From: an uncultured Bacteroidota bacterium
GTDB taxonomy: Bacteria > Bacteroidota > Bacteroidia > Bacteroidales > GWA2-32-17
NCBI GenBank assembly: GCA_903872185.1
Contig: CAIQJL010000092.1
Coordinates: 1 to 61,993, forward strand
Length of the DNA: 61,993 nt
Direction of reading: 5' to 3'
Position 1 is the stretch's first letter. Every line of letters begins with the position of its first letter. This document shows positions 3,184 to 21,540 of this stretch, in pieces. The notes under the pieces are model-generated. The model was not told where the DNA came from. It made no database searches and saw nothing but the letters and a program-made list of their open reading frames with translations. The translations under genes and the position numbers were made by a program.

Positions 3184-4293
3184 TTATTTTTTCAACACAT
3201 TATTAAAAGCAACTCTTTTATCGTTTTTATATGCTACTATAAATGCATCTTGATATTTAGTTGAACTAGAAATTATTCTTTTTGCTTCGCTTGCTGCTTT
3301 ATATGAATAATACTCTCCAACCATATATTTTACAAACTCCTGCTGATCTTTTTTATCTTCCGACAATGGAGTTAATCCATGAAACTCATTAACATCAATT
3401 TTTTTAGTAAAAGCACCTATCTGCACTTTATATACTATTAATTCCAGAGGTTCATTAAGCTCAACGTTAGCCTTAGTTTCATTTATAATAGCTTTTGTCT
3501 CAGTTAAATTAGAGATAACGCTTTGGGGTTTTCTTTCGTTTGGGGTATTTAAATCAGCAGATAAAATTGGGTATTCACTTTTATTAATTGGCATATTATA
3601 ATATAAAGAATATGCTTGTTCATATTTTTTTATTGCTTCTAATTTTAACAAATTAGCTTTTTTTAAATAATCTATTCCATCTTCAAAATTAAAATCGTAA
3701 CTAGCTTTTTCTTGATTTATATTTGCCTTCTTATATAATTCTTGTGCTTCTTCGTTTAATTCAATAATTTGTTTTTGATACTTATGATTTTTTGCCATTA
3801 ATACACCGGTTGTTGGAAAATGGTCTTCGTAAATTTTAAACAATAAACTATTTCCCATTTCAAATAGCTCTTCTGCATCATATCTTAAAGATATTTCATG
3901 TTTTTCTTGCCTATTTATTTTTTTTTCAATCTTTAACTTATTCTCAATTTCATTTGTGTTAACGATTGTTTTCTTAATCTCATTTATTTCTTTAACTACA
4001 AGATCAGCATCTTTTACACATTGTTTTGCTTCAGTTGATAGTTCTTTTATATTCAATAATAAATCTTTTTCTTTTAAACTTAGTTTTAAATGCTTTGTAA
4101 TCTTTTCGCTTTTTACTTGTCTAATAGATTGTTCCAATTCACTATTTTCAAGTTTGTTCATATTTATATTTGCAACTAACTTTTTATCATTATTTGACTG
4201 TTGTGAAAAACTTGTAACATTTGAAAATAAAAAAACAAATGCTATGAATGTTGTTTTATTAAACATTCGTATTCTCGAAAAAATTAATTTCAT
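3184..4293 (-). CDS. Exported coiled-coil protein with a C-terminal SPOR-like domain (paralog A)
   Basis: Signal peptide; C-terminal YKVQIGAF...KYMVGEY...DAFIVAYKN. Confidence 0.7.
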   Translation of the reverse strand: MKLIFSRIRMFNKTTFIAFVFLFSNVTSFSQQSNNDKKLVANINMNKLENSELEQSIRQVKSEKITKHLKLSLKEKDLLLNIKELSTEAKQCVKDADLVVKEINEIKKTIVNTNEIENKLKIEKKINRQEKHEISLRYDAEELFEMGNSLLFKIYEDHFPTTGVLMAKNHKYQKQIIELNEEAQELYKKANINQEKASYDFNFEDGIDYLKKANLLKLEAIKKYEQAYSLYYNMPINKSEYPILSADLNTPNERKPQSVISNLTETKAIINETKANVELNEPLELIVYKVQIGAFTKKIDVNEFHGLTPLSEDKKDQQEFVKYMVGEYYSYKAASEAKRIISSSTKYQDAFIVAYKNDKRVAFNNVLKK

Positions 4294-4691: not shown

Positions 4692-5924
4692 CTAATATTC
4701 TTTTTTGTTTTTTATATCATTATTCAGAACTATTCTTTTTTGATTTTTATAAGCAACAACAAAAGCATCTTTATAAGGAGTTGTTATTGAAATAATTCTT
4801 CTGGCTTCATTTGCTGCTTTGAATGAAAAATATTCACCTACCATATATTTAGAAAATCCTGCTTGATCTTTTTTATCTTCAAATAAAGGATATAGACCAT
4901 TAAATTCTTTAACGTTAACTGTTTTCCTAAAGGCACCTACCTGAACTTTAAAAACGACTCTGTTTTCCATATTGTTAAATGACTTGATTTCTGCAGGCTT
5001 AGCCTGATTTAATGTGTCTTCTGCTATATTTTTGTCAACTTTTGCAAATTTAATAGCATTTGTATCTAAAGAATTGTTTTTTATCATCTCTGTTGATTTG
5101 ATATCATTAACATTCTCAATTATATTTTTTTTGGCTAATTCTTCCTTATTATTAAGACTATTATTTTGCACATTATTGTCGCTTAACTGAGTGCTAGTTT
5201 CTGAATTGCTATCATTTTGAATATTATAATATAAATAATACAACTGTTCAAATTTTATTATCGCCTCTCTTTGATAAAATGTTGCTCTTTTTAAATATTC
5301 TAACTCTTCTTTATATTCTAAATCAATATTATCATTATCCTTTATTTTTATGGCTTTTGCGAATGACTCTTTTGCTTGTTTTACTATATTATTTATTTGC
5401 TGCTTTTTGTTAATCTCAATTTTTTCGATATCAGAAATTGAAGGAACATGATTCTCATAAATATTAAATAAGAGACTATTACCAATTTGATACAATTCTT
5501 CAGCATCATATTTATAAGTTATTTCGCTATTTTCTTTTCTAACAATTTTCTTATACGACTTTAACTTACTAGATTGATCTTCCGAGGAATTAATCATTTT
5601 CTGAGTTTCTGCAACTATCTCCTCATGAACTATTTCAGCCTCTTTTAAGCCATCTAAAGCTTCACTAAACGATTTCTTTATCTCAATTATTAGATTTTTC
5701 TCGTTAGTCTCTAAATTCATTTTTTGTGAAATTTTTTCAAATTTCTCAAGGCAAGTAGATTGTTCATCTATATTACTTTCAGATATATTTATTGGAATTC
5801 CTACTGAGGTCTTTTTAATAGATTTTAACGACTGTGAAAAACAGTAAAAATTAGAAATAAAAAGTACAAATATTAAGATAAAAAATTTATTATACTTTTG
5901 GCTTTTTAAAACAATTTGCTTCAT
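4692..5924 (-). CDS. Exported coiled-coil protein with a C-terminal SPOR-like domain (paralog B)
   Basis: Same layout as 3184..4293; C-terminal FKVQVGAF...EDKKDQ...KYMVGEYFSFKAA...DAFVVAYKN. Confidence 0.7.
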   Translation of the reverse strand: MKQIVLKSQKYNKFFILIFVLFISNFYCFSQSLKSIKKTSVGIPINISESNIDEQSTCLEKFEKISQKMNLETNEKNLIIEIKKSFSEALDGLKEAEIVHEEIVAETQKMINSSEDQSSKLKSYKKIVRKENSEITYKYDAEELYQIGNSLLFNIYENHVPSISDIEKIEINKKQQINNIVKQAKESFAKAIKIKDNDNIDLEYKEELEYLKRATFYQREAIIKFEQLYYLYYNIQNDSNSETSTQLSDNNVQNNSLNNKEELAKKNIIENVNDIKSTEMIKNNSLDTNAIKFAKVDKNIAEDTLNQAKPAEIKSFNNMENRVVFKVQVGAFRKTVNVKEFNGLYPLFEDKKDQAGFSKYMVGEYFSFKAANEARRIISITTPYKDAFVVAYKNQKRIVLNNDIKNKKEY

Positions 5925-8429: not shown

Positions 8430-9500
8430 ATGAAAAACATTTTATTCTTTTTAATTTTTACAGTTGCAATATTTTCATGTAAAAAAGACAAACCAGAGCC
8501 TGCACCAACTATTCCAAATAGCGCAAATGCCTTAATCACTTTTTCAATTCCAGGCCAGTTATCTTCAGTTATTAGCCCAGGTGCACATACTGTAGTTATT
8601 ACTATGCCTTTTGATGTTAAACTTGACAGTCTTGTTGCTGCAAATTTCACCATTCCATCAGGAGCTACAATAAAAATTGGAACCATACCTCAAACAAGTG
8701 ACGTAACTTTAAATAATTTTATTTCTCCCATTACTTATACTATTACTGCAGAAAACGGAACAGCAATACAAGATTGGACTATTACTGCCGATTATGAAAC
8801 GTATTCATATTTATTAGAAGATTTTCCTACAACAAATGAATCATTCTATATGGAAATTGATAGTACTAATTTACAAGGATATTCACTTGAAACTCCTGGT
8901 AAAGGTAAAATTTGGAGTTTTTTAGGGCTAGGTATTGAAGCAACGGATACTTTAGATTTTCTTTCACCTTCTGCTCATCCTGCAGGCTCACAATTTCCAA
9001 GCGCATCAGTAGTTGTAAAAGATCATAGTTCCTCTTTTGATATGTTTGCTTCAAATTCAAGCACTAAATCAGAGCTAATTGGAATGTATGGTTCTGTAAA
9101 TGGAATGCTTATTTCTGTTCCAACAACAAATCGTTTAACCACGTTAAAATTTCCATCAGAGTTTGGTGTAAATTTTATTGATGACGGTGCTTTGCAAAAA
9201 GACACATCTATAACATATTCAGGATTTCCTGTTACTGTATCATTACAGGTTGATATTAATACTGAGAGTAATATTGATGCTAATGGAATTGTAAAAACAC
9301 CCATTGGAATTTTTAAATGTGTTCGCGAACATAATGTACAAATAAGACATACTCAGGTATTAGTTGCAGGTGCTTCATACCTGGATCAATCTGACACAAC
9401 CCGCACTTATAATTATTACAACAAAGAAAAAGGTTATCCTGTTATTATTGTAGAGGTTGATGCTTCAGAAAACATTAAAAAAATTAAACATCAAAAATAA
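8430..9500 (+). CDS. Lipoprotein with an N-terminal Ig-like (DUF5018-type) domain
   Basis: Lipobox IFSC-KKD; motif F..PITYTITAENG; function unknown. Confidence 0.6.
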   Translation: MKNILFFLIFTVAIFSCKKDKPEPAPTIPNSANALITFSIPGQLSSVISPGAHTVVITMPFDVKLDSLVAANFTIPSGATIKIGTIPQTSDVTLNNFISPITYTITAENGTAIQDWTITADYETYSYLLEDFPTTNESFYMEIDSTNLQGYSLETPGKGKIWSFLGLGIEATDTLDFLSPSAHPAGSQFPSASVVVKDHSSSFDMFASNSSTKSELIGMYGSVNGMLISVPTTNRLTTLKFPSEFGVNFIDDGALQKDTSITYSGFPVTVSLQVDINTESNIDANGIVKTPIGIFKCVREHNVQIRHTQVLVAGASYLDQSDTTRTYNYYNKEKGYPVIIVEVDASENIKKIKHQK

Positions 9501-9710: not shown

Positions 9711-12296
9711 ATGAAGACAAAAAATAAAATACTGCTTTCTCTTTTTATCACAATAGTTTTAGTTTTTTGCAGTTTTTTATTTTTAGTACAATTAAATAAT
9801 AACAATTTACAAAATACTATTAACATTGAAAAGGACATACACAAAAAAACAATAATCACAATTACATCTTTTCATTCAGAGAATCTTGCAGAAATCGTTA
9901 AAGATTATGGCTGTTATGATCAAATGATAGCTTTTATGAAAACCCATGATACATTATGGGCTAAATCTGACATTACAATTATTAGTTCATTTAAGATGGA
10001 TGCTGTATGGGTTTACGACATTAAAAAAGAAAAATTATATACAGAATACTCAGATATAATATACTCTGAACCGTATGCACCCGACGAATCTTTAAATAAA
10101 CTATTTGAAAAAAAAATCATTCATTTTTTTATTAGAATTCCTGAAGGAATTATGGAAATTAGTGGAGGGTCAATTAATAGCACAGAAGATATAAACAGAA
10201 AAGATTATGCTAAAGGTTACTTGCTTATAGGTAAATTATGGGACAAAAATTTTATTAAACTACTTACTGAACAAACCAATAGCAGATTAAAAATAAAACT
10301 TGATACTACTGTAACAGAAATAAACTCAAATCCTAACAAAATAAATCTTCCTCTATACTCTTATGACAAGAAGATTATTGCAACTCTTTCTTCTATAAAA
10401 GAAAATCTCTTTTTAAAAAACAATAAAACTTTTAATCGCTTTATTTATCTTTTTTTCGGAATATTTTCAGTATTAATTCTATTAATTTTTTACTTTAGTT
10501 TTAAGAAATATGTTATTAGTCCACTCGGAAATATTATTACATCTCTTAAATCAAACGATGCTTCAATACTCGAAAAACTAAAAGTCAAACCTGATGAATT
10601 TGGAAGTATAGCTGAAATAATTATACAGTTTTTCGAGCAAAAAATTCAATTGGAGAATGATCTGTATGAAAGAAAAATTATTGAAATAAATTTACGCGAG
10701 AGCGAAAAAAGATTTAAAGATTTTGCTGAACTATTACCAGGGTTGGTATGCGAAGCAAATATTGACGGAAAGCTTACATTTGCTAATCGAGCAGCATTTG
10801 AAGCTTTTGGCTGGGAACCAAGCGAACTTAATGATTTATCTATTTACTCTATTTTTGCTCCTGAAGATGTGAATAATGTTAAAACAAATTTAGCTCGTCG
10901 TATTCAAGGAGAAAACCTGGGTTCAAATGAATATTTAGCATTAAGAAAAGACGGCACAACGTTTCCTGCTTTAGTATACGTAAATTTAATATATAACGAT
11001 GGCCAACCCGAATCTATTAGAGGTGTAATGGTTGATATAACAACTATTAGAAATGCGCAAAAAGAAATACGCAAATTACTTCATGCAATAGAACAAAGTC
11101 CGAATACAATAGTAATCACAGATACTAAAGGAATTATTGAATACATTAATCCTCATTTCACTGAACTTACAGGATATACAAAAGAAGAGACTATAGGAAA
11201 CAATCCCAATATATTAAAATCAGGCAAAATGACTGAAAATACATATAAAATGCTTTGGGAAACAATTAAGTCGGGTAATACCTGGAAAGGCGAATTTATA
11301 AACAAAAAGAAAAACGGAGAGCTTTATTGGGAGTATGCTACTATTTCTCCTGTAAAAGATAAGAAGGGCAATATCATAAATTTCATCGCTGTTAAAGAAG
11401 ATATTACTGAAAGAAAAAGACTTGAACAACTAATAATTGACAGCAATGAAGAAGTAAAATCTCAAAATGACGAATTAGAACTTCAGCGAAATATTGCAAC
11501 AAAGCAGAGAGATGAAATAATTGAAATAAATAATGAAATAAAATCGAGTATACGTTATGCAGAAAATATTCAAAAAGCAACTTTAACTCCAAAGATTCTT
11601 CTAGAATCATTATTCGATGATTACTTTATACTTTATCTTCCAAAAGATATTGTAAGCGGGGATTTTTATTGGGTAAAACATATAGGGAATAAAACAATTG
11701 TTGCTGTTGCAGATTGCACAGGACATGGAGTACCAGGTGCTTTTATGAGCATACTAGGAGTTGCATTTTTAAATGAAATTGTAAATAAAAAAGATGTGTA
11801 TTTTGCAAATGAAATACTTAACGAACTTAGGGAACACGTTGTTATATCATTGCAGCAAATTGGTGTTTCTGGTAGCTCTCAAGATGGAATGGATATGGCT
11901 ATAATAATAATTGATGAAACAGAAAATTCCTTACAATATGCTGGGGCAAATAATCAGGTTTGGGTAATAAATGAAAATTCATTAATTGAATTGTGTCCCG
12001 ACAAAATGCCTGTAGGAATTCATGAAAAAATGGTTCCATTTAGAAACAATATTATTAAAATTCAAAAAGGCGATTTGATTTATTTATTTACAGATGGAAT
12101 TGCGGATCAATTTGGAGGACCTCAATCAGAAGCAGGCGGGAAAAAATTCAAATTAAAACAATTAAAAGAATTATTAATATCAATCTCAACACTGCCATTG
12201 AAAAAACAGAAAGAATCTATAGAAATGGTTTTTAATAATTGGCGCAACGAAATTGAGCAAACTGATGATGTTACAATAATGGGAATAAAAATATAA
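9711..12296 (+). CDS. Membrane sensor phosphatase: CHASE4-like sensor, two PAS domains, SpoIIE/PP2C domain
   Basis: Two TM segments; DYGCYDQM (CHASE4-like); two PAS/PAC units; PKDIVSGDFYW, ADCTGHGVPGAFMS, FTDGIADQFGG, DDVT. Confidence 0.85.
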   Translation: MKTKNKILLSLFITIVLVFCSFLFLVQLNNNNLQNTINIEKDIHKKTIITITSFHSENLAEIVKDYGCYDQMIAFMKTHDTLWAKSDITIISSFKMDAVWVYDIKKEKLYTEYSDIIYSEPYAPDESLNKLFEKKIIHFFIRIPEGIMEISGGSINSTEDINRKDYAKGYLLIGKLWDKNFIKLLTEQTNSRLKIKLDTTVTEINSNPNKINLPLYSYDKKIIATLSSIKENLFLKNNKTFNRFIYLFFGIFSVLILLIFYFSFKKYVISPLGNIITSLKSNDASILEKLKVKPDEFGSIAEIIIQFFEQKIQLENDLYERKIIEINLRESEKRFKDFAELLPGLVCEANIDGKLTFANRAAFEAFGWEPSELNDLSIYSIFAPEDVNNVKTNLARRIQGENLGSNEYLALRKDGTTFPALVYVNLIYNDGQPESIRGVMVDITTIRNAQKEIRKLLHAIEQSPNTIVITDTKGIIEYINPHFTELTGYTKEETIGNNPNILKSGKMTENTYKMLWETIKSGNTWKGEFINKKKNGELYWEYATISPVKDKKGNIINFIAVKEDITERKRLEQLIIDSNEEVKSQNDELELQRNIATKQRDEIIEINNEIKSSIRYAENIQKATLTPKILLESLFDDYFILYLPKDIVSGDFYWVKHIGNKTIVAVADCTGHGVPGAFMSILGVAFLNEIVNKKDVYFANEILNELREHVVISLQQIGVSGSSQDGMDMAIIIIDETENSLQYAGANNQVWVINENSLIELCPDKMPVGIHEKMVPFRNNIIKIQKGDLIYLFTDGIADQFGGPQSEAGGKKFKLKQLKELLISISTLPLKKQKESIEMVFNNWRNEIEQTDDVTIMGIKI

Positions 12297-12319
12297 ACTT
12301 TTATTTATTTTGTTATAAT

Positions 12320-12352
12320 AAAAAAGGCTATTGAATTTCAATAGCCTTTTTT
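12320..12352. terminator. Bidirectional intrinsic terminator
   Basis: A6-GGCTATTGAA-T-TTCAATAGCC-T6 between convergent genes. Confidence 0.85.
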
Positions 12353-12366
12353 GTATATTTATTTTT

Positions 12367-13905
12367 TTACTCTAAACTTCCAACCGCTTTTTCAACTTCA
12401 TGAAGAATTTCGCAAGTCTGAACCAAAGCTTTCATAGTATTATGATCAGGATATAATGGACGATCAATATCTAAATAATCTATATGTTTTCTTATTACAT
12501 CTTTTGCAACCTGAGTTCCTTTTCCAAATATAAATTTCTCTTCATATTTTTCACGCAAATCCAATGCCTGAGCTGCTGCCATAAATTCTATTCCTAAAAT
12601 TCCAAAAGCATTATCTAAAATCTGAATGTTTTTTATAGCAGTATTCATTCCCATAGACACAAAATCTTCCTGATCGGCAGCAGCAGGAATAGATTGAATA
12701 GATGCCGGTGCAGACAAAATTCTTTGTTCTACAATTTGCATATCTGCTGTATACTGACTTAACATCATACCAGAAAACATTCCTGCACCCTTTGTTAAGA
12801 ATGGAGGTAAACCAACACTTAGGGCTGGATTATTTAAACGATTTAATCTTCTTTCGGATAAAACGCTAACCATTGTTACAGCAGCACCAATTAAATCCAT
12901 TGGCAAAGAAACCGGTGTACCCTGAAAATTTGCACCAGAAAGTTGTATGTTTTCGTCAGGAAAGAAAATTGGGTTATCTCCTACTCCATTTAATTCAATT
13001 TCTACCTGTGAACGAGCCCATGCAACAGCATCATGAGCGGCACCAATAACTTGCGGTGTTGAACGCATACTATAAGCATCCTGAACTTTTACTTTAATTC
13101 TTTTTTCTAATAAATCGCCATCAGTTGCTACTCTTCTAATTGCAGCAGCGCTTCTCATTGCTCCTTTAAAACCACGGATCTCATGAATCTTATGATTGTA
13201 AGGCCCAAAATTAGCTCTTAAAGCTTCAAGCGACATAGTACATGCAATTTCAGCTTGTTTTAACCAATTATTAACATCGTACAAATATATTGCACTCATT
13301 GCAGTCATAACATTAGAGCCATTAATAGTAGCTAGACCATCACGAGCTTGTAAACCAGGAATAGGAATCTCTGCTTTTTCTAATGCTTCTTTTCCTGTAA
13401 GAAATTCACCTTTATAATAAGCATGACCTTCGCCCATCATTAATAGAGCAATTTGTGACATAGGAGCTAAATCGCCACATGCTCCTACCGAACCTTTTTT
13501 ACAAACAAATGGAGTTACTCCTTTGTTTAGCATATCTACCAATGTTTGTGTTATCTCTATTCTAACACCTGAATTACCATGTGCATGTACATTAATCCTA
13601 CCTAGCATTGCTCCTCTTACATGTTCTAACGGCATAGCCTCACCAATACCTGCTGCATGATTATACACTAAATACTTTTGAAATTCTTTTACCTGATCAT
13701 CATTTAATACAACTTCAGAAAATTCACCAATACCTGTATTTACTCCATACATTATTTCATGTGCATCAACTTTTCTTTCGAGCATTGCGCGACATTTATT
13801 AATTTTTTTCACAGATTCTGGATGCAATTCAACTTTTTCTCCATGACGTGCAACTTTTACTACATCATCAATTGTAATTCCGCTACCTTTAACTATAAGT
13901 GTCAT
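12367..13905 (-). CDS. hutH: MIO-dependent aromatic amino acid ammonia-lyase (HutH-like) with an Ala-Cys-Gly MIO triad
   Basis: YGVNTGIG, GSVGACGDLAP, INGSN, QDAYSMRSTPQV, DNP, NFQG, QEDFVSMG. Histidine as substrate is likely but unproven. Confidence 0.75.
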   Translation of the reverse strand: MTLIVKGSGITIDDVVKVARHGEKVELHPESVKKINKCRAMLERKVDAHEIMYGVNTGIGEFSEVVLNDDQVKEFQKYLVYNHAAGIGEAMPLEHVRGAMLGRINVHAHGNSGVRIEITQTLVDMLNKGVTPFVCKKGSVGACGDLAPMSQIALLMMGEGHAYYKGEFLTGKEALEKAEIPIPGLQARDGLATINGSNVMTAMSAIYLYDVNNWLKQAEIACTMSLEALRANFGPYNHKIHEIRGFKGAMRSAAAIRRVATDGDLLEKRIKVKVQDAYSMRSTPQVIGAAHDAVAWARSQVEIELNGVGDNPIFFPDENIQLSGANFQGTPVSLPMDLIGAAVTMVSVLSERRLNRLNNPALSVGLPPFLTKGAGMFSGMMLSQYTADMQIVEQRILSAPASIQSIPAAADQEDFVSMGMNTAIKNIQILDNAFGILGIEFMAAAQALDLREKYEEKFIFGKGTQVAKDVIRKHIDYLDIDRPLYPDHNTMKALVQTCEILHEVEKAVGSLE

Positions 13906-14070
13906 AAATAAATAATTTTATTTTAATGATTTATTAATCTTTTTTTAGATTCCTCGAAATAAACGAAAAAAGATGAGATATAGAAATGATAAATTTCATC
14001 AGTTCTTAGTTTTAAAAAAATAAAAAGATTTTTTAATCAAAAAATAGAACTACAACAAGGCTTTATGGTT

Positions 14071-14078
14071 TATCTTTG
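14071..14078 (+). promoter_or_regulatory. Bacteroidota sigma70 -7 element
   Basis: TATCTTTG fits TAnnTTTG, 14 nt before the ATG at 14093. Confidence 0.55.
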
Positions 14079-14092
14079 CACAAATTTAATTT

Positions 14093-15160
14093 ATGAAACT
14101 TTATTTTCGATTTTCGATTTTACTCGTTGGTTTAATTTTTTCCTTAATATCAACAGCTCAAATACCTGCCGGATACTATGATTCTGCTGCAGGATTAACA
14201 GGAGCACCACTAAAAACTGCATTATATAATATTATTAAAGGTCATACGGTACAATCTTACCCTTTATGGTCATGGTACGACAATACAGATTTAAAATCTG
14301 ATGGGAAAATTTGGGATATTTATACCGACGATTGTGTTTTTACTTATTCAACAGATCAATGCGGTAGCTATGCTAATATTTGCGACTGCTATAACAATGA
14401 ACATTCCTTTCCTAAAAGCTGGTTTGGCGATGTGTCTCCAATGAATTCAGATATATTTCATCTGTATCCTACTGATGGAAAAGTAAACGGAATGCGCTCT
14501 AATTATCCATATGGAGAAACTTCCACTGGAACTGTTTATGGTAATAGCAAATTAGGTAACAGCACTTTTTCAGGATATTCAGGTACTGTTTTCGAACCTG
14601 CTGATCAATACAAGGGGGATTTAGCAAGAGGATACCTATACATGGTTACACGTTACGAAAACGTTGTTGCAGGCTGGGAAGCCGACGACCCAAATGGTGA
14701 TGCGATGTTAGATGGTACTTCATTTCCTTGTTTTGAACCATGGGCTTTATCATTACTTCTAAAATGGAATGCTCAAGATCCTGTTAGTCAAAAAGAAATT
14801 GATAGAAATAATAAAATTTACACTTTAGTTCAACATAATCGCAACCCATATATTGACCATCCTGAATGGGTCACTTCCGTTTGGGGCCCAGCTTCAGGAA
14901 TAAATAATATTGAAAATAATATTTCTGTTTCAGTTTATCCAAACCCTGCATCTACAATAGTAAATATTAGTATAAATTCCAATATTAATAAGCCATACGA
15001 ATTAAGCTTATTCAAATCAGATGGAACAAATATTTTCACAAAAACTGAGAATAATAAAAATGAGGCAATAGATTTTTCGGGATTGCCAGCTGGTGTTTAC
15101 TTTGTTAAATTAAAGTCTGCGATTTTTTCTAAAATCGAGAAAATTGTAATATTAAAATAA
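14093..15160 (+). CDS. Secreted endonuclease I (EndA/NucM-type) with a T9SS C-terminal domain
   Basis: NEHSFPKSW, SDIFHLYPTDGKVNGMRSNYP, KGDLARGYLYM, RNPYIDHPEW; CTD VYPNP...GVYFVKL...KIVILK. Confidence 0.9.
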   Translation: MKLYFRFSILLVGLIFSLISTAQIPAGYYDSAAGLTGAPLKTALYNIIKGHTVQSYPLWSWYDNTDLKSDGKIWDIYTDDCVFTYSTDQCGSYANICDCYNNEHSFPKSWFGDVSPMNSDIFHLYPTDGKVNGMRSNYPYGETSTGTVYGNSKLGNSTFSGYSGTVFEPADQYKGDLARGYLYMVTRYENVVAGWEADDPNGDAMLDGTSFPCFEPWALSLLLKWNAQDPVSQKEIDRNNKIYTLVQHNRNPYIDHPEWVTSVWGPASGINNIENNISVSVYPNPASTIVNISINSNINKPYELSLFKSDGTNIFTKTENNKNEAIDFSGLPAGVYFVKLKSAIFSKIEKIVILK

Positions 15161-18879: not shown

Positions 18880-21540
18880 CTATTCAATTTTTGAAATTCG
18901 TTTTGAAATAACTCTTATTCCATCATCTATTGATAGAAAATATACCCCTGCATTACAACCGGATAGATTAAGCTGTGTTAAACTTATTCCTTTAGAAATT
19001 TCTTGCGATAAAACCCTCTTTCCTAAAACGTTATAAATACTTATTACAGCGTTATTCTCTTTAACTGTAGAAAACTCAATGTTAATATAATCTGTTGTTG
19101 GATTAGGATAAATAAGAATTTCATCATTAATTTCATTTACAGTTTCAGGCATAGAAGTTATTGTTGAGCTATCCCATTTATATATTCCACCATCCGTTGA
19201 ACTCACATTAAATCCACCAGCCCATCCAGTGTTATAATCATAAAAAGAAACTGTTGTATATTGAACAGAACCTGTATCTATATCAAGAAAAGAAGCACAA
19301 TCATTTATACTATATGAAGAACCAGGTGTTGTTGTAGCTGTGCTTAAACTAGCGCTTACATCAACCCACATTGAAGTAGTTCCTGGCACAAAATCAATAT
19401 CTGGTGACTTAACATAAAATCCGGTAGGAGTAACTGCTGTCCAAGTTGCACCACCATCAACGGTTTTTTTCATTCCCAAATAAGTATAAGGTGATGCGTT
19501 CTGAGTTCCTGTAACAAATCCCACACTAGCATTTTTAAATACCGGTTTTGCAATTGCTGATGTTCCTAAACCAGTTGCTGAAACTGTCCACGTTAACCCT
19601 TTATCGCTTGATTTATAAACCCGGCCACTTGAAGTTCCAAACCATATTGTATTTCCAAATGCATCATATAAATTTGTAATACTTGCTTCGCCAGATAAAC
19701 AATTTGGAAGAGTTGCAACAGGAACCTGTGTCCATGTTGTACCTCCATTTGCAGTGGTATAAATAACAAAATCAGTTCCTGCAGGGTCACCCATACAAAC
19801 ACCATCATTTGCATTAAAAAAATGCACTAAATCTAACCAACTAGTTGAAAAACTTGGTGAATTTGCAATTGACCAAGTATTTCCTGCATCAACAGTTTTT
19901 GCAATAACACCACCGGTTGTTCCGGTTGGAAACATTGCTGCAAAACAAACACTATCATCAAAAGCAAAGATATTCGCAACACCATAGTTAGTAGCATTTG
20001 TAAAATTTATAACGCCAGGAGTCCATGTAATTCCACCATTTACTGTTCGTGTAAATTCTCTTACATAAGTTGTTCCGCCTGATCCATCAAATGCTTTTGC
20101 CCAAACGGTATAAGGATTTACAATAAACACCTGATCAATTCCTCTTGATGCAGTAGCGAAACCAGTATTTTGCTTAATCCAGGCTGAAGGCGTACCCCCA
20201 ACATTAATATATGAACTTCTTGTTTTTGTATCTGAACCTGTACCATTTGTTACAGTTAATGATACAAGATACAGTCCTGCTGTATTATAAGTAACAGTTG
20301 GGAATTGTACTGTTGAAGTTGAAGGTGTTCCACCATCAAAAGTCCAGCTCCATGAAATTGGGCTATTTGTTGAGTTATCTGTAAAATTTACTGTACCAGC
20401 AACTGGTGGCGTTACATTATCAGCTACAAAATCTGCTAATGGCGCACTTGATGGTGGTTTAATTCTAATTACCGCAGAATTATCAAGATTAAAAGTATCG
20501 CCAATTGGATTTAAACTGCCAATTGCAAAATACCCATTTGCCATTCCATCCCATCCCCAATTAAAATGAAATTGGTTAGTTGTATTATAACCATCGCATA
20601 CAAAAGCATGACCACCTTGAGGGCCGGTACCTGAATAATAAATTGGATGAGAGTTGTCAAGTTCACCTTTTAACATTGTAATCCAATTCGCTGAAGTAAA
20701 ATCTGCAAGAAATTTTATCTCCGCACTTGTCGAATAATTAAAATAGCTAATCAACGCACTTGGCACATCAAAAGAATATGCTCCCGATGCACTTGGACTA
20801 TAATCCATGTTAACAGAAACACCTGCATGATACATTATAGTGGCGACAGCAGTTTTTTGTGTTGCAGTTGAACTACCAGAATAACTATTAAGCATATTTG
20901 CCCATTGGTATGTTGTTGCGCCAAAGTTAGCTGTTAATGCACCATAGGTAGCATGAGTATATGTATGAGTTCCAACTCCAGTTGTTGGATAATTCCAATA
21001 TTTCATAATTTGAGCCATTGCAGTAGCAACACATCCAGTTACTGAACCAGAAGGACATAAATTATTGTAAGGAGAAGACTGATCCCATGTTGTTGTACAA
21101 AGTGGGTTTACAACTTGTGTTGTTTTATTAAATTGATTATTTAATATTTTATTCCATTCTTTAATGGTCTCTATATTGCTCAAATTGTTATCAACAATAA
21201 ACTTAATATGATTATTGTAACCGTCTAACCATGCAGCAGCATTACTTGGTATGTTGTTTTTATCAAATGATTCAGTTGAAGAATAGCCCAAAACAGGAGT
21301 TACAGCATCATCGGCAGAAATCATTACAAAACCACCTGATTTAAAAACAAACACATAAAATGTAGAAATCTGACCAGATTTATATTCTACTACATCGGAA
21401 ATTAAATAATCATTTGTTTTTTCTGCATAATGTTTGTAAACATTAACCGCAACAGTTTTTGCAGATTCAAGTGAGACCGATGCAGCAAAAAGCCCAAAAC
21501 TAAATGCCAGCAACAAAAAAGTAATGGAAAGTTTTTTCAT
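18880..21540 (-). CDS. C10 (streptopain-type) cysteine peptidase with PKD, BNR/YCF48-like propeller and T9SS CTD
   Basis: Propeptide; W-Q--PYN, GCVATAMAQIM (catalytic Cys), GGHAFVCDG (His); PKD WSWTFDGG; repeated T-DGG-TW; CTD IYPNP...GVYFL. Confidence 0.9.
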   Translation of the reverse strand: MKKLSITFLLLAFSFGLFAASVSLESAKTVAVNVYKHYAEKTNDYLISDVVEYKSGQISTFYVFVFKSGGFVMISADDAVTPVLGYSSTESFDKNNIPSNAAAWLDGYNNHIKFIVDNNLSNIETIKEWNKILNNQFNKTTQVVNPLCTTTWDQSSPYNNLCPSGSVTGCVATAMAQIMKYWNYPTTGVGTHTYTHATYGALTANFGATTYQWANMLNSYSGSSTATQKTAVATIMYHAGVSVNMDYSPSASGAYSFDVPSALISYFNYSTSAEIKFLADFTSANWITMLKGELDNSHPIYYSGTGPQGGHAFVCDGYNTTNQFHFNWGWDGMANGYFAIGSLNPIGDTFNLDNSAVIRIKPPSSAPLADFVADNVTPPVAGTVNFTDNSTNSPISWSWTFDGGTPSTSTVQFPTVTYNTAGLYLVSLTVTNGTGSDTKTRSSYINVGGTPSAWIKQNTGFATASRGIDQVFIVNPYTVWAKAFDGSGGTTYVREFTRTVNGGITWTPGVINFTNATNYGVANIFAFDDSVCFAAMFPTGTTGGVIAKTVDAGNTWSIANSPSFSTSWLDLVHFFNANDGVCMGDPAGTDFVIYTTANGGTTWTQVPVATLPNCLSGEASITNLYDAFGNTIWFGTSSGRVYKSSDKGLTWTVSATGLGTSAIAKPVFKNASVGFVTGTQNASPYTYLGMKKTVDGGATWTAVTPTGFYVKSPDIDFVPGTTSMWVDVSASLSTATTTPGSSYSINDCASFLDIDTGSVQYTTVSFYDYNTGWAGGFNVSSTDGGIYKWDSSTITSMPETVNEINDEILIYPNPTTDYINIEFSTVKENNAVISIYNVLGKRVLSQEISKGISLTQLNLSGCNAGVYFLSIDDGIRVISKRISKIE

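Follow-up and report, generated by a model that had tools for sequence, protein, structure and literature searches.

The closest described systems to the gene analysed here are the bacterial histidine ammonia-lyases (HAL, HutH; EC 4.3.1.3), represented by the solved enzymes from Pseudomonas putida (1B8F and 1GKM) and Thermoplasma acidophilum (7TQR). The same fold is shared by the ergothionase from Treponema denticola (6S7J), the tyrosine and phenylalanine ammonia-lyases (TAL and PAL) and the aminomutases, the ergothionase presumably being devoid of the triad from which the cofactor 4-methylidene-imidazol-5-one (MIO) is formed. From a chemical point of view, cysteine can yield the same dehydroalanine as serine, and an engineered S143C variant of the P. 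putida HAL, made by Langer, Lieber and Retey in 1994, reportedly matures to an active enzyme, thus offering a precedent for the formation of MIO by loss of H2S; to our knowledge, that laboratory mutant is the only instance so far from which this elimination route is known. In textbooks and reviews the serine of the triad is treated as invariant: Ala-Ser-Gly is presented as a HAL-defining feature in one review (PMC9002059) and as "strictly conserved" in another paper (PMC3903478). The literature searched yielded no report of an MIO triad that occurs naturally as Ala-Cys-Gly, the "Ala-Cys-Gly" papers found there concerning no MIO enzyme.

The window—the whole stretch of 61,993 nucleotides that was analysed—contains a lyase gene, the product of which, P0001, has precisely such a triad in the context GSVGACGDL (Table 1). 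In the phmmer alignment, which is gap-free up to this point, Cys143 of P0001 is the exact counterpart of Ser143 of the P. putida histidase; instead of the Ala-Ser-Gly expected of a HAL there is Ala-Cys-Gly, with the position and the flanking GSVG and GDL conserved, including the adjacent Gly144 and Asp145. Both motifs that the sequence-only reading had singled out, i.e. Ala-Cys-Gly at the MIO site and LVYNH in place of LxxSH, were recovered when the minus strand was read again. Based on the results described below, P0001 is probably a functional HAL belonging to a distinct clade of Bacteroidales paralogues, the MIO of which would be made from cysteine via loss of H2S. The natural triad spelled with cysteine is the majority state of this very conserved and uncharacterised clade.

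Table 1. Features of the lyase gene and of its surroundings in the window
Feature	Position	Strand	Basis
Lyase gene (clade B HutH paralogue); protein P0001, 512 aa, HAL family	12367-13905	-	ORF listing and translation
MIO precursor triad Ala142-Cys143-Gly144, codons GCA TGT GGC	13474-13482	-	Reverse complement of the plus strand
Cys143 codon	13477-13479	-	Within the triad
LVYNH, segment of the substrate switch, containing Asn82-His83 (Ser-His in canonical HAL)	13657-13671	-	
QEDF (412-415): Glu413 = HAL-specific Glu414; Phe415 against His of canonical HAL	12661-12672	-	
Tyr53, catalytic base of the lid loop	13747-13749	-	Alignment
Gln275, Tyr278, Arg281 = P. putida Gln277, Tyr280, Arg283	13063-13083	-	Alignment
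ANFQ: Phe327 = Phe329 (needed for MIO formation); Gln328 PAL-like (canonical HAL: His)	12922-12933	-	
Hairpin of 17 bp bordered on either side by T/A runs; situated between the lyase gene and the PAS-SpoIIE gene convergent with it	12318-12354	.	Consensus scan only
AT-rich divergent intergenic region 5' of the lyase gene	13906-14092	-	Sequence read
Sensor, 861 aa: CHASE4, two PAS and SpoIIE/PP2C phosphatase domains; convergent with the lyase gene, shares the hairpin	9711-12296	+	
Endonuclease I carrying a fused C-terminal sorting domain of the T9SS type, probably a secreted nuclease; divergent from the lyase gene	14093-15160	+	
Streptopain-like C10 cysteine peptidase, 886 aa: N-terminal Spi-type inhibitor prodomain, PKD, T9SS C-terminal sorting domain	18880-21540	-	
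Three ORFs (356-410 aa), each without a Pfam match at E <= 0.001	3184-4293; 4692-5924; 8430-9500	-; -; +	

Concerning the family placement, P0001 matches the aromatic amino acid lyase profile PF00221 with 528 bits over positions 1-465 of 466. Its top scores among the NCBIfam models are those of the two HAL models, both lying below their own cut-offs—523.4 against 524 for NF006871 and 487 against 539.15 for TIGR01225—and the models of aminomutases, TAL and PAL follow 166-366 bits below the HAL models (TIGR03832, TIGR04475, NF053541 and TIGR01226 reaching 357, 345, 330 and 203 bits against cut-offs of 501, 800, 700 and 519, respectively). The closest solved relatives by sequence are the T. acidophilum HAL, with 297 bits, and the P. 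putida HAL, with 275-279 bits, whereas the ergothionase, TAL/PAL and the aminomutases reach 197-269 bits. With the best solved relative at 297 bits only, the objection that the enzyme might be a standard histidase from an already characterised clade is not borne out. The AlphaFold2 model of P0001, for which an alignment of 116 sequences served as input, has a mean pLDDT of 96.8, and its best fold matches are the HALs from P. putida, T. cruzi and T. acidophilum, the first of them leading with a TM-score of 0.94-0.95 and an rmsd of 1.6-1.7 Å. The identity to the solved HALs in Foldseek is 32%; ergothionase, TAL/PAL and the aminomutases share the fold at TM-scores of 0.88-0.94, their specificity residues being different.

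The catalytic set known from the P. putida HAL is intact in P0001. The two proteins are numbered alike up to approximately residue 230, so that Tyr53 and Asn195 keep their numbers, and the Gln, Tyr and Arg of the QDxYSxR motif as well as Phe329 are found two positions earlier. Both HAL-specific substrate residues, His83 and Glu413 (Glu414 in P. putida), are also kept, the former being near-invariant in the family alignment; it is by this His/Glu pair that HALs differ from the aminomutases and from PAL and TAL. The differences from the canonical HAL comprise, in addition to Cys143, Asn82 for Ser just ahead of His83, i.e. within the Ser/His selectivity switch described previously (PMC11432326), NFQG for NFHG, with the glutamine resembling that of plant PALs, and QEDF for QEDH. 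P0001 exhibits none of the marks of TAL, PAL or aminomutases, such as the His-Leu or Phe-Leu switch or the absence of Glu at position 414, since it reads Asn-His and possesses Glu413. An identity as TAL, PAL, aminomutase or the flexirubin enzyme FlxA was therefore discarded based on both the model scores and the specificity residues, and so was an ergothionase-like enzyme without MIO, the context of the triad and the catalytic set being retained.

In the maturation envisaged for P0001, the backbone at Ala142-Cys143-Gly144 would cyclise autocatalytically with the loss of water, and Cys143 would subsequently undergo β-elimination of H2S, where a serine would lose water, the product being the same 4-methylidene-imidazol-5-one in both cases. 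The mature enzyme would then convert L-histidine to trans-urocanate and NH3. Both the maturation by loss of H2S and histidine as the substrate are what we infer as most likely from the comparisons presented here.

The sequences grouping with P0001 are designated here as clade B, and the canonical Bacteroidales HutH as clade A. Clade B was found in 55 of the 151 Bacteroidales genomes sampled, its members being 72-100% identical to P0001. The distribution of identities over these 151 genomes is strictly bimodal, every PF00221 gene outside clade B, HutH of clade A included, sharing 39% or less with P0001. All the 120 closest database clusters are at least 80% identical to it and originate from metagenome-assembled genomes of Bacteroidia/Bacteroidales; 114 of them contain Ala-Cys-Gly and six Ala-Ser-Gly. 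This, together with the codon counts given below, bears out the proposal of a natural Ala-Cys-Gly subfamily. By contrast, the triad of clade A is always spelled with serine (GSLGASGDL in 40 of 40 sequences). The two clades also differ in their Pfam scores (above 590 bits for clade A, about 525-545 for clade B), in their mean pairwise identity, which amounts to 82% within clade B and 64% within clade A over the same taxonomic span, and in 63 positions fixed differently, among them Asn82/Ser, Gln328/His, Phe415/His and, in the lid loop, Ile59/Phe and Phe62/Leu. Outside clade B, Ala-Cys-Gly occurs sporadically in other HAL lineages (e.g. P0180, P0216 and P0225), the total being 8 of the 138 motif-bearing representatives at 50% identity. 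It should be pointed out that PROSITE-type patterns and the curated HAL cut-offs miss clade B, which leaves a gap in annotation, and that many Bacteroidales contain two very different histidase paralogues.

The possibility that the cysteine codon arose from an error in sequencing or assembly, or that it is an oddity of one strain, can be dismissed almost entirely. Among 111 orthologous clade B loci, drawn from one-genome-per-species collections and thus from independent assemblies, the site is occupied by cysteine in 77 (TGC in 39, TGT in 38), including the 98%-identical locus L006, and by serine in 34; nothing favouring an error was found, and the objection that a serine codon had been misread is set aside by the same counts. 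The phylogeny of the Ala-Cys-Gly sequences, which the sequence-only reading had proposed as a check, was calculated as a maximum-likelihood tree of 108 distinct clade B proteins, of which 74 have Cys and 34 Ser at the site. The clade is tight, and within it cysteine and serine replace each other 15 times by parsimony, at least five of these changes being forced by well-supported branches; shuffling the labels on the same tree yields 29 changes on average. Near-identical sisters of opposite state are exemplified by the pairs L054 (TGC) and L057 (AGT) and L126 (TGT) and L134 (AGT), separated by path lengths of ~0.05 and ~0.14 substitutions per site, respectively. The serine codons come from both families, AGY (18) and TCN (16), each of which is one substitution away from TGY but not from the other. 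This fits cysteine as the common and probably ancestral state at position 143 of clade B, replaced by serine repeatedly and independently.

Across the columns of the clade B alignment, no residue was found to change together with the Cys/Ser site. Such a free exchange without co-variation fits a precursor side chain that would be lost on maturation, leaving the same dehydroalanine-derived MIO, and it does not fit a Cys143 used as a thiol. This bears on the view that Cys143 stays unconverted—as a thiol or as a cyclised ring without elimination—giving a different chemistry or a non-catalytic, regulatory paralogue, which is considered here to be quite improbable. It may be said in its favour that MIO formation in natural Ala-Cys-Gly proteins has so far been deduced rather than seen, and that homologues without MIO, such as the ergothionase (6S7J), do exist; clade B, however, retains the triad that the ergothionase is devoid of, as well as the whole MIO-forming and catalytic set. 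The frequent, uncompensated exchange of Cys and Ser among near-identical orthologues is hard to square with a functional thiol, and an inactive enzyme would not be expected to be under such strong purifying selection. As regards the S143C mutant of the P. putida HAL, clade B has the same replacement at the same position, the former being a laboratory construct and the latter carrying the cysteine as its natural majority state. A large natural clade with cysteine would show that the H2S-elimination route exists in nature, and it supplies near-identical pairs of Cys and Ser orthologues for studying MIO maturation. The practical consequence would be modest if the mature enzyme is, as seems likely, an ordinary histidase.

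With regard to the locus itself, the lyase gene is flanked in the window by the convergent gene for the CHASE4-PAS-SpoIIE sensor phosphatase on one side, and on the other by the divergent gene for the T9SS-secreted endonuclease I, which is followed by aroB, aroA and a PgeF-like gene. A link to aroB-aroA was rejected, these genes being on the other strand, beyond the gene for the secreted endonuclease, and not conserved as neighbours in the relatives. The hairpin listed in Table 1 is likely a bidirectional terminator, as predicted from its sequence, for both convergent genes, and the lyase gene would then be monocistronic in this window. Upstream of the lyase gene, TAAATTTG is situated at ~14083-14090 on the minus strand and is a putative match to the Bacteroidetes -7 motif TAnnTTTG.

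In the related loci, of which 80 were compared, the surroundings of clade B are arranged in a conserved block on the same strand, consisting of DUF6016, hisS, (clade A), clade B, a 146-aa protein, SusC and SusD. The gene hisS, which encodes a histidyl-tRNA synthetase, lies directly upstream of clade B on the same strand in 30 of the 80 loci, and the canonical hutH of clade A does so in eight, in five of which it is inserted between hisS and clade B. The full block with both clades and with one or two copies of the 146-aa protein is seen in L015, L030, L055, L082 and L084 (e.g. L030:4890-9527). The protein of ~146 residues, for which there is no Pfam match, is encoded just downstream of clade B and ahead of SusC/SusD in 42 of the 80 loci (e.g. 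L027:10038-10478); it is often duplicated in tandem, and the locus in the window does not contain it.

The genome of origin contains exactly one PF00221 gene, although its assembly consists of 407 contigs (G000) and a canonical hutH could formally be missing from it. The sequence-only reading had noted the lack of hutU, hutI and hutG next to the lyase gene and inferred a possible substrate other than histidine. The observation stands for the neighbourhood in the window, where none of the three was found, but not for the genome, in which urocanase (hutU), imidazolonepropionase (hutI) and glutamate formiminotransferase (ftcD) are encoded on contigs C238, C388 and C325, respectively. In this organism the hut genes are just scattered over separate contigs, hutU being flanked by the unrelated genes for ApbE and ChaN, and the argument leading from missing hut neighbours to a non-histidine substrate was consequently abandoned. 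P0001 thus shares with the bacterial HutH a genome that also encodes the rest of the Hut pathway and differs from it in that its gene is unlinked to hutU. As the only enzyme of its kind in the genome, it would feed these scattered hutU, hutI and ftcD.

The same association is observed across the genomes sampled. Clade B is the sole PF00221 gene in 21 of the 151 genomes, and 20 of these 21 carry urocanase; overall, urocanase is present in 54 of the 55 clade B genomes, these counts not being independent as the genomes are related to each other. Of the 28 PF00221-negative genomes, 20 are listed individually, and none of the 20 has urocanase. On the other hand, hutU is often found next to clade A genes but never next to those of clade B. 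It should be noted that all this is co-occurrence and not a proof of flux. Histidine as the substrate of P0001 is suggested by the preserved catalytic and imidazole-binding residues, by the co-occurrence with hutU and by the neighbourhood of hisS, so that the sequence-only suggestion of another substrate is not supported by the data: His83, Glu413 and the six catalytic residues are present, the only PF00221 gene is accompanied in its genome by hutU, hutI and ftcD, and nearly all the genomes with clade B as their sole PF00221 gene contain hutU.

The observations that count against the histidase reading are the HAL scores below the cut-offs, the 63 fixed differences from clade A, the absence of hutU adjacency and the coexistence of the two clades. 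Clades A and B belong to the same family and occur together in about half of the clade B genomes, sometimes with A directly upstream of B on the same strand, which is not what one would expect if the enzyme were fully redundant and thus counts against a plain histidase isozyme. It is conceivable, although rather unlikely, that clade B is an MIO enzyme acting on another substrate, for example N-methylhistidines or a different amino acid, or an aminomutase, and that it coexists with clade A for this reason. Such an enzyme would agree with the many genomes possessing both clades, often in an A-then-B tandem, with the clade B-specific replacements in or near the pocket (Asn82, Gln328, Phe415, Ile59 and Phe62), with the position of P0001 under the curated HAL cut-offs and with the conservation within clade B being unusually strong in comparison with clade A. 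It is nevertheless opposed by the retention of the HAL-marking His83 and Glu413, by the distance of the aminomutase, TAL and PAL models from the HAL models, by the hisS neighbourhood, which points to histidine, and by the urocanase kept in the genomes with clade B only, since that enzyme needs a source of urocanate.

A related proposal is that clade B goes beyond a variant spelling and provides anaerobic Bacteroidales with a second enzyme of the histidase type, functionally specialised. In that case cysteine would be ancestral and might have been retained for the sake of a better maturation of the cofactor by thiol elimination in a reducing, anoxic cytoplasm, and the altered pocket with Asn82, Gln328 and Phe415 might reflect a distinct substrate or a regulatory role. 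It would account for the conserved gene order hisS-A-B and for the unusual slowness with which clade B evolves, yet it is put forward here only as a speculative, less probable option. The most likely interpretation of clade B as a whole continues to be that of a slowly evolving histidase isozyme.

In addition to clades A and B, a third class of PF00221 paralogues is present in Bacteroidales, with Pfam scores of about 535-573 bits, 32-35% identity to P0001 and slightly longer matches; examples are G057:C3:773186-774610, G094:C20:27909-29321, G044:C1:159760-161184 and G132:C1:1128989-1130407. The members of this class are probably not histidases, because at least four genomes having it as the sole PF00221 match (G044, G081, G132 and G134) lack urocanase. 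Two further genomes, G098 and G115, are also without urocanase, and their single PF00221 match is of unassigned class.

Finally, clade B genes with 78-82% identity were also encountered on contigs labelled as non-Bacteroidales (L016, L037, L042, L047, L057, L060, L062, L065, L066, L074 and L085), the labels of the records being Alphaproteobacteria, Deltaproteobacteria, Zixibacteria, Ignavibacteria, Aminicenantes, Bathyarchaeia or Thermoplasmatales; these could be due to either mis-binning or a recent transfer of a very conserved gene.
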